From NCBI GenBank assembly GCA_963744255.1, contig CAVUSZ010000038.1, positions 43 to 64,042 on the forward strand: a stretch of 64,000 nucleotides of DNA. Direction: 5' to 3'. This document shows positions 2,335-28,569 of this stretch, one piece after another (the first letter of the stretch is position 1; every line of letters starts with the position of its first letter). The notes under the pieces were generated by a model, which made no database searches, was not told the DNA's origin, and worked only from the letters and a program-made list of their open reading frames with translations. The stretch comes from an uncultured beta proteobacterium (lineage in GTDB: Bacteria > Pseudomonadota > Gammaproteobacteria > Burkholderiales > SG8-39). Both the position numbers and the translations under genes were made by a program.

Positions 2335-3252
2335 TCAGGATCGCCGCGCCGCGCCGGCGCACGCTCTCGCGACCGATGCGCGGATGATCTCGGCGAGCCG
2401 CCGCTCGTCGCGCCCGGCGTAGTCGGGGTCCGCGAATACGAGATAGAGATCGGCCCAGCGCTCGGCTCCTTCCCTGAGCGGCAGCGGCCTCAGGACGCCG
2501 GCCGCGAGCTCGTCGCGGACGTTCTCCTCGGGATACCACGCGAATCCGAGCCCCATGGTGGCGGCCCGAATCGAAGTCGCTTTGTGGCTGACGGTCCAGC
2601 GCTGCTCGGCGCCGGCCCAGAGCCCCGGCCGGGTGCGCTCGATGCCGGAATCGCGGATGACGAGGTGCCGATGCCGCCGGAGATCGCGGTCGGTGAGCTC
2701 CCGGTCGAGCTGGTGCAGCGGGTGGTCCGGGTGCGCGCAGGCGATCAACCGCAGTCGCAGGAGCAGGTCACCGAGGAAACCCTCCGGCACCTGCGAGACG
2801 ATCGCGAGATCGACCTGGCGCGCTTCGAGCGCCTCGTCGGTGCCGCCGAGCACCGTCTCGTAGAGCTCGATGCGCGTCTCGGGCCGCTCGGCGGCGAAGT
2901 CGCGGAGGCACTCGAGCAGCAGCCAGGTCGGGAAGATCACCTCCACCGCGAGCTGCAGCTCCGGCTTCCAGTCCGCCGCCATGGCCTTGGCGCCCTGCTC
3001 TAGCGCCGCCGCTTCCTCGACGAGCGTGCGCGCACGGCGAACGAGCACTTGGCCGGCCTCGGTGAGCACCGCCTTGCGGCCGCGGATCTCGAACACCTTC
3101 ACGCCGAGCGCGGACTCGATCTTTTGCACGGCGTAGGTCACGGCCGATTGGCTCTTGTGCAGGGCGTCGGCCGCTTGCGCATAACCGCCCGCCTCGACGA
3201 CCGCGAGCAGGGCGCGCCACTGGTCGAGCGCGACGCGAGGGGTCGTCGCCAT
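2335..3252 (-). CDS. LysR family regulator, divergent from azoR
   Basis: HTH AADALHKSQSAVTYAVQKIE; 305 aa. Confidence 0.95.
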   Translation of the reverse strand: MATTPRVALDQWRALLAVVEAGGYAQAADALHKSQSAVTYAVQKIESALGVKVFEIRGRKAVLTEAGQVLVRRARTLVEEAAALEQGAKAMAADWKPELQLAVEVIFPTWLLLECLRDFAAERPETRIELYETVLGGTDEALEARQVDLAIVSQVPEGFLGDLLLRLRLIACAHPDHPLHQLDRELTDRDLRRHRHLVIRDSGIERTRPGLWAGAEQRWTVSHKATSIRAATMGLGFAWYPEENVRDELAAGVLRPLPLREGAERWADLYLVFADPDYAGRDERRLAEIIRASVARACAGAARRS

Positions 3253-23322: not shown

Positions 23323-25504
23323 TTAGTGCTGTGCTGCACCCGCCGCACCGAAGCCGGTCTGTGCGCGGACGAACTGATCGGGGTAAGCCGCCTGTTCCTT
23401 GCGCGCTCGCGCGCTGCTGTCCAGCTTGGAGACCAGCCAGGTCACCAGGAACGCGGTGGTCATTGAGAACAGCGCAGGATGGTCATAGGGGAAGATCGGC
23501 GTCGCGTTGCCGAGCACCTTCACCCAGACCGTCGGCGACAGAAGTACGAGCCCCACCGCGCTAACGAGCCCGGCGATCCCACCCCAGAGCGCGCCTCGGG
23601 TGGTGAGTCCCTTCCAGTACATGGACAGGATCAGCAAGGGAAAATTGACCGAAGCCGCGATACCGAAGGTTAGCGCCACCATGAACGCCACGTTCTGGCC
23701 CTTGAACAGGATGCCGAGCGCAACGGCCACAACTCCGATCACCAGTGTGGCGATCTTGGACACCCGCATCTCTTCCTGCTGCGAGGCCGTGCCCTTGCGG
23801 ATGACGTTGGCGTAGATGTCGTGCGAGATCGCCGCGGCCCCCGCGAGCCCAAGCCCTGAGACTACGGCGAGGATCGTGGCGAAGGCGACCGCCGAGAGAA
23901 AGCCGAGGAACAGGTTGCCCCCGACGGCCTTCGCCAGGTGCATCACCGGCATGTTGCTCCCGCCGATGATGTTGCCGCCCACCTTGCCGCCTTCGAAGAA
24001 CTGCGGGTCGGTGCCGACAATGACGATGGACGCCATGCCCATAAGGCCCACGACCAGGAAGAAGAAGCCGATGAAGCCGCTCGCATAGAACACGCTCTTG
24101 CGCGCCTCTTTAGCGTTGGGCACGGTAAAGAAGCGCATCATGATGTGCGGTAAGCCCGCAGTGCCGCACACCAGCCCAATGGACAGTGACACTGCGGTGA
24201 CCGGATCGGCCAGCAGCGAGCCCGGCCCCATGATCTTGGCGCCGTCCTTGTGCGCGGCCACCGCTTTCGTCGCCAGCGTCTCAAAGTTGAAGCCGAACTG
24301 ATAGAACGCCAACAGCGTGAGCAGCGTGCCGCCGGCGAGCAGCAGTACGGCCTTGATGATCTGCACCCAGGTTGTGGCGACCATGCCGCCGAAGGTGACA
24401 TAGACCATCATCAGTACGCCCACCGCGATGACTGCGTAGTTATATTCAATGTAGATGAGTGGTGTGCTGCGATCTACGGCTGAGAGAGCAAGAGAGAGAA
24501 CTTGGAAGTGGGACTTGGCGAGAGTGAGGAAGAAAGGGAAGAGCGTGGTGCAGAAGAATAGAGAGGCTAGAAGTGGAGATAGAAGAGATAGAAGAGGTAG
24601 AAGGAGAGAGGCTAGGAGAAGAGAAAGTGGAGAAAGTGAAAGTGGAGGAGATAGAGATCGCTGATAAGAAAGAAGGTAGGAATAGATAAGAGAAGATAGA
24701 GAAGAGAGAGAAGCTACAAAGACGACTAGGTGGCGCGAAAAGAAGAGAAGGGGAACAGAGAAAAGCAAAGATAGATGGTGGTGGAGAGAAGAGAAAAGAG
24801 AGAGTAGAGAGAGAAAGAAAGAGAAAAGGAAAGAAGGAGAAGAGGAGGAAAGGAAAGAGGAGAAAAGATAGAGAGAAATAGAAGAAGATGAGAAAGAAGA
24901 GATATAAGAAGGAAAAGGAGAGAGAGATGAGGCAGAGATAGAGGGGTAGGCCGAGCCCGAATAGCAGCTGAATCAACTCGCCGGCGCCCACCATCTGCAC
25001 GATGAGGTAGAAGGCCACCACGGTGAGCGTGCCCACCGCCGCAAAAGTGCGGATCCGGGTCTGGTCGAGACGGTAGGCGGCGATGTCGGCAAAGGTAAAT
25101 TTGCCGAGGTTCCTCAGCCGGTCCGCCAACAGGAACAGGATGACGGGCCAGCCGACGAAGAACCCGATCATGTAGATGAACCCGTCATAGCCTTTGAAGT
25201 AGATCAGGCTCGAGAGGCCGAGCAGCGTGGCCGCGGACATGTAATCGCCGGCGATCGCCAAGCCGTTCTGAAAGCCGGTGATGCCGCCACCGGCGGTGTA
25301 GAAGTCGGCCGTCGTCTTGACCTTGCTGGCAGCCCAGTAGGTGATGCCCATCGTTACCGCCACGAACACGAAGAACATGACGATGGCGTAGATGTTGAGC
25401 GGCTGCTTCTCGACCGGGCCCACCGCGGCGGGCGCAGCGAGCACCAGCGCGGACAGCCCCACCAACAGCGCGCCGATAGCCAGTTTGACGATTGGGGTTT
25501 TCAT
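23323..25504 (-). CDS. actP: Cation/acetate symporter, split by a ~505-bp purine-rich insert
   Basis: [46 protein letters not shown]. Confidence 0.88.
24448..24952. other. Low-complexity polypurine (G/A) tract
   Basis: + strand is nearly all G/A with no clear repeat unit; flanks rejoin as LFGL|EYNYAV. Confidence 0.9.
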
Positions 25505-25812
25505 CGAGTGGCCTCCTCGAGGACTTGGTTGTTGATCGCATCGAACTCGCTGTTGGCGCGGCGCACGTACAGGCCAGTCAGCAACCAGCAAATCACGACG
25601 ATCGCAACGCCGACCGGCACGCCCACGGTGGTCACTGCGCCCTGCCAGAGCGGCGTGGCGAGGAGGCCCGGCCAGAAGGCGACGACCGCCATGAAGCTGT
25701 AGTAGCCGACCAGGACGATGGCAGAGAGCGCCCACGAAAAGCGCGCGCGGCGGGCCACCAAGTCATGGAATTTCAAGTTGTCTCTAACCCGCTGATAGAC
25801 TGTGTTTGGCAT
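25501..25812 (-). CDS. yjcH: DUF485 inner membrane protein (ActP partner)
   Basis: [13 protein letters not shown]; ATGA overlap with actP; AGGAGG RBS. Confidence 0.85.
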
Positions 25813-25895
25813 ATTCCCTCCTGCAGGACAAGACCGATAGCGTAGAAGCAGCCCCGCGGCGCACCCTCGCCGGCCTCCGGAAGTGCTTGTATGTT

Positions 25896-26098
25896 GTCCA
25901 CTCATCGGAGTTCTCCGGTGACAATGGACGTCGACGGAATCCGGGAGAGGGTCGCCGCGCGTGCGCTCGAGGCGAAGTCCTCGGCAATGAGATTGGCGCC
26001 CTCGACCGGTGCTCAGGGCCCGAACGGTATCCCGAGGCCGGCTGTGCCGAGTCCTCGCATGCACAAGCGCGGGCAGGAGCACCGGCTCCGAGGCTCCC
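25896..26098 (+). ncRNA. IS110 bridge RNA (5' hairpin, target-binding loop, donor-binding loop); ends approximate
   Basis: Three stem-loops; ACGGTATC and ACAAG match donor joint, GCAATGAG matches right target flank. Confidence 0.85.
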
Positions 26099-26124
26099 GA
26101 CTTCCTCCGTCGGCAGGAGGTCGT

Positions 26125-27311
26125 ATGCGATTCGCTGGCGTGGACATCGCCTCCGAGACCCACGTGGTCGCGCTGGTCGACGAAGATGGGAAGGTCTTGG
26201 TCAAGCCCACCGCGTTCACCGAGGATGCGGCCGGCTACGAGAAGCTCTTCGAGCAGCTCGGCGCGAGCGCCGAGCTGCTCGTCGCCATGGAGGCCACCGG
26301 CCACTACTGGAAGAACCTCTTCGCGGCCCTGGCCGCGCGCGGCTTCAGCGTGGCGCTGCTCAATCCGCTGCGCACCCATCGCTTCGCCGAGGAGGACCTG
26401 CAACGCACCAAGACCGACGCGATCGATGCGCTTGGGCATCGCGCGCTTCGCCGCGCAGAAGCGCCCCACGCCCACGCGGCTGCCCGACCCGGCCACCGAG
26501 GAGCTGCGCGAGCTGGTGCGCCTGCGCGAGCGGCTGCTGCAGGACTTCGGCGACCGGGTGCGCCAGCTCCACCGCCTGGTCGACCTGGGCTTCCCCGAGT
26601 TCACCCGCTACGTCAAGGGCCTGGATAGCGAACTGGCGAGCGCCATCCTGCACGACTATCCCACCGCCGCGGCCTTCCGCGGCGTATCGGCCAGGCGTCT
26701 GGCCGCCCTGCGCTACGACGGCCGGCACAAGGTCGGCGCCGAGCTCGCCGGCCTGCTCATCGCGGCGGCCAAGCACTCGGTGGGACACCATCACGGCGAG
26801 GCCTACCGCGTCCAGGTCCGCTACGCCTGCGAGGATCTGGACATCCTGCGCCGGCGCTTGCGCCAGCTCGACCGCGACATCGAGGGCACCCTCGGCGCGC
26901 ATGAAGTCGGCACGCTGCTCACCACCATCGAGGGCATCGGCCCCAATACCGCCGCGCGCCTCATCGCCGAACTCGGCGACCCCGCCCAGTTCCGCGCCCC
27001 CGGCGCGCTCGCCGCCTACGTCGGCGTCGTGCCAGCGCTCAGCCAGTCGGGCAAACGCAAGAACACCCGCGCCGCCACCACGACCATCGGCAACGCTCGC
27101 CTGCGCGCCGCACTGTGGATGCCCACCCTGACCGCCGTGCGCAGGAACCCCTGGCTGCGCGCCCACTACCAGCGTCTGCTCGCGCGCGGCAAGCTGCCCA
27201 AGGTCGCCCTGGTGGCCTGCATGCACAAGCTGCTCTTGGCCGTCTACAGCGTCGCCAAACATCGCCGGCCCTTCGTCGCCCATCTGGCTACCGCGGAGAC
27301 GACACACATGA
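26125..27311 (+). CDS. IS110 DEDD recombinase (frameshift ~26435; stop approximate)
   Basis: GVDIA, MEATG, KTDAIDA, IEGIG, SQSG, ACMHKLL. Confidence 0.93.
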
Positions 27312-27341
27312 GCTCGCCGCTTGACAAAGAACACGGTATCT

Positions 27342-27460
27342 CATTGCTCGCGCTTCCCCGTCGATCACCACCTTGTCCGATACGGCAGACAGCATCGACG
27401 GACCGGCAGCAGGCGAATCGGGTACAGCGCCAACATGGTGCGCGTGGTGTGGATCGCGCG
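27342..27460 (-). pseudogene. Second MaoC/PhaJ C-terminal remnant, interrupted by IS110
   Basis: AVCRIG.KVVIDGEARAM|STS aligns with TVCRVKG.VIEGEATVMTTS of 21002-21484. Confidence 0.5.
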
Positions 27461-27784
27461 TCTGTGCGCTGTCGCACGTATCACCAGACCAGGGTGATCC
27501 ATGGTCGTCCGAGCGATCCTCGATGCTCCTCGTCGACGATCATGACGTCGGCGACGATGTGATGCATCTCAACCACCGCTAGCCGGAGGTATTGAACGGG
27601 GTTGATCGCCTGCCGAACGCCTACTGAACGTCGTGCCAGGGCTCGGCACCTTCTTCTTCACCGCGGATCCGGACCGCTTCCGCGGGCTCGCCGCCGGGTT
27701 TCTCGAGTGCCACGCCGCAAACTAAGCCTCGCTGCGGGGCCCGCCGCGTCCGTTTGCCGCGACCGCTCGTGCTACGTTGCGGTG

Positions 27785-28569
27785 ATGCGCTGCCTGCTCC
27801 TCCTCGCCCTCGCCCTCGCCGCCGGCGCAGCCCAGGCGGATATCCGCGTGCGCGTCGCCGCCACCGACCCGCCGGCTGAAGCGACGCTCGGCCGCGACCA
27901 GCCGTTCTACGTGCGCATCCAGTTCGACGCCGACGAGCCGGTCGGCCTGTGGACGCACGCGTACTTCGGCGGCAAGCGGATCGAGAAGGGCTGGAAGTCG
28001 AATGCTTCGGCGAAGTGGTCCGGGTCGGGCTACGCGCTCGGCTGGATCTCCTTCGACAAGCCGGTCGAGGTGGACGAGATCCGCATCGTCGCCGGCGGCG
28101 GCAAGCCGTACCGCGAGTGGCAGGTGTCCGCGTACCCGGTCAAACTCCGCTGGGGCAGCGGACCGGTCGCCGACGCGACCGCGCCGTGGGTCCCCGAGCT
28201 CAAGCGCGCAACCGCGGCGGCGTGGGAGGCCGAGCGCAAGGCGGCGGCGGCGAAACCCCCGACTGCCGGCGATCTCGCGCTCGGGTTTCTGATCGCCCCG
28301 GTGCTGGTGGCGCTCGTGCTCGCTTGCATCGGCGCGCCCGTGTGGGCGCTGTGGAGATGGCGCGGCGCGTGGCGGCTCGCGGCGGCGGTGCCGGTCGCGG
28401 TGATGGCGTTCGTCGTCGGGCGAATCGTCGTCGACACGTCGCGCGACCCGACCTCGCACAACCTCTGGCCGTTGGAGATCATCATCTTCGGCGCCGGCGG
28501 CGTCGGCTTATCGTCGTGCTCGCTCTGGTCCGCCGCTTCACGGGCGCCGGCGCGCCGCGCCTTTCCTGA
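27785..28569 (+). CDS. Hypothetical exported/membrane protein (frameshift near end)
   Basis: Signal peptide AQA, beta-rich domain, three TM segments, DPTSHNLWPLE. Confidence 0.75.

Follow-up and report, generated by a model that had tools for sequence, protein, structure and literature searches.

IS621 of Escherichia coli, whose bridge RNA layout, guides and split promoter have been described by Durrant et al. (2024, PMC11208160) and Hiraizumi et al. (2024, PMC11208158), is the system with which the locus reported here is compared throughout. In the sections of these two accounts that deal with the RNA and the active site, a 5' stem-loop is followed by a target loop, which consists of a stem, a 9-nt left target guide (LTG), a stem-loop, a right target guide (RTG) and a 2-nt handshake guide, and then by a donor loop, which consists of a stem, an 8-nt left donor guide (LDG), a stem-loop, a discontiguous right donor guide (RDG) that lays nine RNA bases on seven DNA bases, and a second 2-nt handshake guide. 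The insertion sequence (IS) described below, which lies in a 64,000-nt stretch of an uncultured beta proteobacterium (contig CAVUSZ010000038.1; the whole stretch is called the window), has the same order of parts in both loops and shares with IS621, as the latter is portrayed in those sections, the CT core, a promoter split over the junction of right end (RE) and left end (LE), and a catalytic set of DEDD residues plus a serine. We are highly confident that this unit, which covers 1454 bp including one core copy (25888-27341), is an IS110-family, IS110-group element with an IS621-type bridge RNA in its left end and a recombinase that combines a DEDD/RuvC domain with a Tnp serine domain. Coordinates are those of the window, and all features of the element are on the plus strand. 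A DNA-level search of E. coli genomes with the element, meant to locate IS621 for alignment, gave no match, so that the comparison rests on the published accounts and on an alignment to the protein sequence in the Protein Data Bank (PDB).

The element begins with a long non-coding left end (~240 nt), continues with the recombinase gene and closes with a very short right end. The dinucleotide CT can be read at 25886-25887 (left core copy) and again at 27340-27341 (right core copy), just as the preliminary description of this DNA had it; outside them lie the left target flank (LT) GGAAGTG at 25879-25885 and the right target flank (RT) CATTG, positions RT1-5, at 27342-27346. The search for this locus and for other copies of the element covered 41 genomes, namely the element's own genome (G000; 58 contigs, 85.8% complete) and 40 relatives, among them one of the same genus (G001), as well as Logan contigs of the metagenome and metatranscriptome runs X1, X2, X3 and X15. 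The occupied locus of the window reads ...TCCGGAAGTG-CT-[element]-CT-CATTGC..., and element-free versions were found in G001 (...CTCCGGGAGTG-GT-CATTAC...) and in contigs of X1 (GGAAGTG-GT-CATTGC, with the same seven bases before the core as in the window), X3 (GGGTGTG-GT-CATTGC) and X2 (GAGGTG-GT-CATTGC). These four empty orthologous sites, each with a single dinucleotide at the place of the left core copy, delimit the ends of the element to the exact base. There are no terminal inverted repeats, the two ends sharing at most 10 of 25 identities at any offset. Its own genome contains no second copy of the element, and the remaining IS110-family genes there show only ~30% identity to its recombinase; a sister copy in G001 (contig C54), 96% identical in DNA, occupies a different site with the same guides.

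A wider view of the left end came from a scan of species-representative genomes, which yielded 486 confirmed relatives, of which the best 80 were kept. Almost all of those kept come from metagenome-assembled genomes of soil, sediment and freshwater, and the loci L026-L096 carry labels of Casimicrobiaceae, Usitatibacteraceae, Myxococcota, Binatia, Acetobacteraceae and others. The IS110-group elements of L026-L096 resemble the one in the window in their proteins (53-95% identical) and in the frame of their RNA; they differ from it in that each has an LTG and RTG of its own. In 57 of 65 elements (the window and 64 loci) the frame consists of GGGAGAGGGTCGCCG, N7+CT, a 16-nt hairpin and N5+GAG-AT-TGGCGCCCTC, and its variable blocks fall exactly at the places of the IS621 left and right target guides.

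An alignment (A1) of 47 distinct left ends of these relatives gave an RNAalifold consensus that comprises a closing helix (25943-46/26095-98), the target-binding loop (25947-26003; outer stem, LTG, stem-loop, RTG and handshake guide) and the donor-binding loop (26007-26084), with two stacked donor-loop stems and both capping hairpins. Its further helices are 25947-56/25995-26003 and 25968-72/25979-83 in the target loop, and 26007-14/26077-84, 26018-22/26070-74 and 26034-42/26046-56 in the donor loop. Compensatory changes were seen at 3 of the 5 pairs of the target-loop stem-loop (25968-25983) and at 6 of the 8 pairs of the donor loop's outer stem. All 40 consensus pairs are canonical in the window; over the 47 left ends 97.5% of cells are paired, as against 42-48% in slid controls, and 21 of the 40 pairs have changed on both sides. 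Double-change cells number 171, compared with 44.5 in shuffles, and none of 500 shuffles scored as high on any measure. The support for the fold thus comes from covariation and not from the folding of the single sequence. To avoid circularity, a covariance model (R1) was built from 36 relatives with protein identity of at most 70%, leaving out the window, its nine closest kin and locus L076, whose sequence ended early. This independent model matches the core of the bridge RNA (25943-26098) over its full length with 156.8 bits (E 4.7e-29), the next match in the 64 kb having 12 bits. In G000 and in G001 it has a single match apiece, and of 24 further loci 18 are matched, two of them weakly and just upstream of ~30%-identical genes of gut bacteria. 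The three-part fold proposed earlier, with a 5' hairpin and two loops, is therefore borne out by the consensus of the relatives, save that the 5' stem-loop (25896-25929), which is poorly alignable among them, comes from the minimum free energy structure of the single sequence.

Guides were defined as in the descriptions of IS621 given in PMC11208160 and PMC11208158. The LDG, ACGGTATC (26024-26031), is identical in 8 of 8 positions to the last seven right-end bases, that is, the left donor (LD) ACGGTAT at 27333-27339, plus the core C; it recurs accordingly at 27333-40. This 8-mer would be expected ~0.9 times in the whole window, counting both strands. Among relatives LD and LDG agree in 45 of 49 cases, nine of these with non-consensus variants, and the same donor as here is present in 36 of the 49. 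The RDG, AUGCACAAG (26059-26067), is read as AU-gc-ACAAG and pairs with CTTGTAT: nine RNA bases are laid on seven DNA bases, with AU, a 2-nt bulge GC and then ACAAG. The fifth right donor base (RD5) and the first base of the RDG, which face each other across the bulge, were complementary in every one of 47 relatives, among which three types of pair occur, and this base had no part in the finding of the ends. Both donor matches that had been reported for the second loop (ACGGTATC at 26024-31 and ACAAG at 26063-67) are thus present. Unlike in IS621, the bulge is 2 nt long with a canonical A:T pair after it. The donor itself, ACGGTAT-CT-TGTAT, is one base apart from that of IS621, as the preliminary description had it; the IS621 donor string given there does occur in the donor DNA (dDNA) oligonucleotide in the relevant part of PMC13396178.

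Two further pairs of bases complete the loops. The handshake guide of the target loop is AT (25992-25993), whose partners are donor positions 7 and 6 (T and A) and not the target's G and T; that of the donor loop is CG (26068-26069), whose partners are target positions 7 and 6 (G, and T by wobble). Both thus follow the IS621 rule of leaving the cognate DNA unpaired, and the family counts agree, the target-loop guide pairing with the donor at its two positions in 47 and 44 of 49 relatives. A promoter split over the RE-LE junction can likewise be recognized: the -35 half, TTGACA, lies at 27321-27326 (TTGnnn here in 38 of 39 relatives) and the -10 half, TATGTT, at 25890-25895 (TAnnnn at a fixed place, 17 nt from the -35), so that TTGnnn-17-TAnnnn spans the junction in 38 of 39 non-redundant relatives, the single exception lying in the -35.

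The relations between the guides on the one hand, and the flanks and ends that they match on the other, covary across ~45 relatives. In the window the RTG, CAATGAG (25985-25991), is the complement of CT plus CATTG and is matched by its cognate flank. It is part of GCAATGAG (25984-91), which is the exact complement of 27340-47 and which the preliminary description had counted as an 8/8 match of its first loop. Seven of those eight bases are guided. G25984 pairs as well, yet that position is unguided in the family: RT6 matches in 14 of 42 cognate comparisons (33%), compared with 30% of non-cognate ones, and the RTG is therefore 7 nt long and the eighth match due to chance. Among 42 elements the right flank and the complement of the RTG agree in 90-100% of cases at RT1-5; for RT3-5 the figures are 90-95%, as against 27-36% for non-cognate flanks, and over RT3-6 there are 112 matches in 144, a number reached in none of 10000 permutations. 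The corresponding guide of IS621, as given in the same sections of the published accounts, has 4 nt, compared with the seven here (core plus five bases).

The left target guide GCGTGCG with its core guide CT (25959-25967) forms the variable block at the IS621 guide place and is present although the preliminary description had not identified it. The family keeps a 30-nt spacing here, which the window exceeds by one base just 5' of or within the LTG; R1 places the extra base as an insertion. Over 44 elements LT and LTG are identical at 151 of 308 positions, compared with a non-cognate mean of 2.31 out of 7, and none of 10000 permutations scored as high. The signal resides in LT5-7 (57, 64 and 77%, as against 29, 34 and 48%), is weak in LT1-4 and, in a scan of registers, appears only on the canonical diagonal, for which reason other pairing registers between LTG and LT were rejected. 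A separate candidate for a left-flank guide, the GAAGT of the target-loop hairpin (25975-79), was also rejected, the hairpin being conserved in relatives with other flanks. That only LT5-7 rises above background among the natural insertions of this clade distinguishes it from IS621. The agreement of the LTG with the left flank is 6/7 for the G001 copy and 7/7 in L026.

The recombinase gene starts at the ATG at 26125. Its N-terminal piece (26125-26433) encodes a RuvC-like DEDD domain with four acidic residues and contains the motifs GVD, MEATG and KTDAIDA; residues 1-102 (26125-26430) match DEDD_Tnp_IS110 (PF01548, 2.3e-28). The C-terminal piece, in the next frame (26435-27304), encodes a coiled coil and a Tnp domain with the serine of an SG pair and matches Transposase_20 (PF02371, 2.9e-26). 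The G001 orthologue is a single open frame of 394 aa that is 97% and 92% identical to the two pieces and is the sole member of its 90% cluster. The window copy being split, the NCBIfam model NF033542, an equivalog named 'IS110 family RNA-guided transposase', was scored on this intact protein and gave 252.9 bits, where the cut-off is 140. The best matches of the orthologue among solved structures are the ISCro4 transposase (PDB 9t56, 1.3e-35), which has the same two-domain layout, a likeness at the level of sequence, and IS621 (8wt6, 3.3e-31), which has 326 aa and is ~30-35% identical over the aligned parts. Its residues D7, E56, D98, D101 and S308-G309 align with D11, E60, D102, D105 and S241-G242 of IS621, which are named as the composite active site in the structural part of PMC11208158, and both pieces of the window copy retain their share of these residues, with S-G in the second frame. 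Over 390 codons the window and G001 copies differ by 42 synonymous and 12 non-synonymous changes, an excess that implies that the gene was constrained until recently. The protein family, the ends, the RNA layout, the donor guides, the RTG, the handshake guides and the split promoter all fit the IS621 type, and the original interpretation of this locus as an RNA-programmable recombinase system is upheld in that respect.

By analogy with IS621, the element would leave its site as a circle with the RE-LE junction ...TTGACA-N15(ACGGTAT-CT)-TG-TATGTT..., which would unite the -35 with the -10 and drive synthesis of the bridge RNA. The donor loop would then read the junction, the AU..ACAAG of the RDG pairing with CTTGTAT, while the target loop would read the insertion site through the LTG (GCGTGCG-CT) and the RTG (CAATGAG on CT-CATTG). 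The recombinase would exchange strands at the 2-nt core, and the two handshake dinucleotides would each pair with the opposite partner after the exchange. Transcription, circle formation and activity are accordingly presented here as predictions from the IS621 model. With regard to the first of these, the metatranscriptome X15 contains a contig of 196 nt that aligns over its full length to 25895-26091, where it shows two differences and one gap, and this run has no cover on 26136-26269, while DNA runs continue through the gene. We regard this contig as a weak hint of RNA from the left end, given that it comes from a single run whose library may hold DNA and that contigs show neither start, end nor strand.

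A number of observations weigh against the interpretation given above. The left end on its own does not fold unusually well (z = -1.78, with 12 of 200 shuffles folding as well), and no Rfam 15 family matched the region 25000-28000 at E values up to 1. The contig in X15 begins 6-7 nt upstream of the start expected from the junction promoter, and no circle back-joint was found among the contigs of the runs that were aligned with the element, contigs being apt to drop rare forms. The recombinase frame of the assembled window copy is split and has no stop. Only three of the seven left-flank bases in the window agree with the LTG, a value typical of non-cognate pairs (mean 2.3), and eight sites in G000 that are one mismatch from the 14-mer predicted by the guides are all unoccupied. 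The core is GT, not CT, in all four empty sites, so that the empty target GGAAGTG-CT-CATTGC foreseen in the preliminary description was not seen in that form. Finally, eight bases (CGACGG[C/T]C) that in all the empty sites precede the insertion point by ~10 bp are missing from the window.

The first two of these points, together with a high G+C content that favours spurious helices, are what can be said for the idea that the structure in the left end is an ordinary 5' untranslated region or a set of regulatory hairpins and that its matches to ends and flanks are coincidental. We consider this very improbable, since the loops covary with the element's own ends and flanks while the stems covary internally, the variable blocks lie exactly at the IS621 guide positions, and each of the 8-mer matches would be expected about once per 128 kb. 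It is less probable still that the element belongs to the IS1111 group, in which a seekRNA is encoded downstream of the recombinase gene. The protein superfamily is common to that group too, but here the structured RNA belongs to the left end and precedes the gene, and only ~31 bp separate the stop codon of the orthologue from the end of the element, which leaves no room for a 3' RNA.

The points that concern the target site bear on how the element came to its present position. The four empty sites belong to other strains (with flanks 93-99% identical), and the eight bases present there but absent from the window (25868-25885, compared with L023, X1 and X3) mean that the IS is not the sole difference between the occupied locus and those of the relatives. 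Either CT was present beforehand in the lineage of the window, or a mismatch at the first base of the core was tolerated and became the donor's CT on both sides. No exact site for the guide-predicted 14-mer was found in G000 or G001. With up to three mismatches it occurs 868 and 848 times on the two strands of G000, where a reversed-pattern control gives 779 and 737; with counts this near the control and no exact site, the notion of the predicted target as a repeat was dropped, and the target is not like a repetitive extragenic palindromic (REP) sequence in these two genomes. The element differs from IS621 in this absence of a repeated target in the host, which is compatible with the non-REP target specificity that had been suggested for it. 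As far as its sequence goes, the LTG of the window would not account for this insertion site. Since the core and right arm are perfect and the left arm is at chance, the insertion was probably a one-armed 'half-match' event. One-armed substrates of this kind recombine in vitro in the case of IS621, according to the portion of a recent preprint that treats them (bioRxiv 10.64898/2026.08.31.748434).

The condition of the recombinase gene raises a different question. Relative to every other copy there is one extra T at 26430-26433, just after the DEDD domain, which shifts the frame (G001; X1 and X2 contigs), and one extra C at 27305-27306, by which the stop codon is lost and the frame leaves the element to run to 27562 (G001; X1 and X2). 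A third extra base, near 25959 in the left target guide region, is absent in G001, X1 and X15, and all three insertions are missing from the sister copy in G001 and from every metagenome contig that covers those places. In its assembled form the copy cannot make a full recombinase, and G000 has no close paralogue that could act in trans. The frameshift had been noticed before, and the two other single-base insertions come in addition to it; the designation of the system as complete was an overstatement as regards the recombinase, whose frame is split and whose stop is gone in the assembled copy.

We lean slightly toward assembly errors as the source of these insertions, and a recent genuine inactivation falls a little short of an even chance. 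In the former event the copy would be intact in the cell and the element active and autonomous, the insertions having arisen as consensus errors in a noisy metagenome assembly, probably one from long reads, a reading that we regard as evenly poised. It draws on the fact that all three differences are one-base insertions found in neither G001 nor the covering contigs, on the synonymous character of most codon differences to G001, on a count of 70 single-base indels in 36.8 kb relative to G001 and on a purine-rich block 1 kb away that is absent in G001 and resembles an assembly artefact. The copies used for comparison are nevertheless from other strains and cannot show what the source strain holds, the source reads were not found (no run contained over 34% of the words in this stretch), and a comparison of frame switches with G001 was symmetric (9 vs 9) and does not single out the window assembly as the noisier one. 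The other possibility, that recent inactivation has left a non-autonomous relic whose bridge RNA may still be made while nothing in the genome can mobilise it, is a serious one that we rate somewhat lower. In its favour the frameshift and stop loss stand in the sequence as given, the element is single-copy, the only other IS110-family genes of G000 are ~30% identical to its own, the LTG region has an extra base as well, and a 62-bp LE-RE relic in G001 demonstrates that decay products of the element exist. It is hard to reconcile with the strong synonymous bias, with the occurrence of three insertions and yet no deletion and no stop-creating substitution, and with the signs of assembly trouble nearby.

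As to the surroundings, the window copy is intergenic and stands 70 bp upstream of a pair of genes, one for a DUF485 protein and one for a sodium:solute symporter. A low-complexity, purine-rich (AG) block of 501 bp (24451-24952) splits the sodium:solute symporter at position 118|118 of the Pfam SSF domain and shifts its frame; the exact split, and the absence of the block from the orthologous G001 locus, make it look artefactual, and it is probably not biology. Over 1300-48100 the window is ~94% identical to contig C62 of G001, several of the single-base indels mentioned above are isolated in long open frames, and consensus indel errors are probable in at least one of the two assemblies. In the frame-switch comparison it should be borne in mind that high G+C gives long spurious frames and that an 891-aa test frame was a fusion of two regions.

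Other insertions of the same kind were seen in passing. The sister copy in G001 (L025, 2203-2640 on the minus strand and 2617 onward) is inserted into codon 2 of a gene for a PIN-domain (VapC-like) protein, and the flank to the right of this copy, CATTGGACTACCCTC, reads as the reverse complement of the ribosome-binding site and start codon of that gene; this flank recurs beside related elements in other genomes (L026, L031, L108 and run X2). Copies with the same RTG adjoin CATTG(G/T) in 4 of 5 metagenome loci for which a right flank is available. The 62-bp relic, on contig C23 of G001 (L024, ~2431-2492, minus strand), has CT on both sides and consists of the 5' hairpin of the left end fused to the last ~13 right-end bases; its site reads ...ACGGCG-CT / CT-CATTTGC, the right arm matching the RTG. 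In the left flanks of L026, L028 and L110 and in the right flank of L025, a GC-rich, palindrome-like motif, ...TTCGCCCTTGGGGCGGCCCGGCGGG-CT, adjoins the element, and the left target guides of the relatives that lie by TTCGCCCTTGGGGCGGCCCGGCGGG match it at 6-7 of 7 positions. This motif may be a REP-like target of those relatives.

Bridge RNAs as a class have been known since 2024 and have been surveyed over many orthologues, and the lists of Durrant et al. may already hold this element or its relatives. What the locus adds is one well-delimited IS110-group orthologue in which all guide segments are readable, with a naturally long RTG of 7 nt and a donor close to that of IS621. The same-genus genome G001 provides a sister copy that is intact, and its recombinase is a candidate for trial as a programmable one. 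For the annotation of such elements, the case illustrates that the class is recognizable from the sequence alone and that an empty site in relatives is needed to check the predicted core. Specialists may find most of interest in the weak left-arm matching of the clade's natural insertions, the GT core of all the empty sites and the intact sister copy, and the ~45 relatives offer a compact set of natural data on the strictness with which target arms and core are read. On a tentative and rather doubtful extension of these observations, the RTG (core plus five bases) would be the main determinant of landing in this clade and the LTG would add three core-proximal bases only; the insertions that become fixed, that in the window among them, would then be mostly one-armed, with a mismatched first core base (a GT target facing the CT of donor and guides) being tolerated and converted to CT. 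The pertinent portion of the half-match study (bioRxiv 10.64898/2026.08.31.748434) indicates that events guided by the right target arm only could not be scored there, because the RTG of IS621 has only 4 nt. If the proposal were true, the clade would offer a natural, genome-scale counterpart of the half-match activity that has so far been reported for IS621 in vitro and in editing data.

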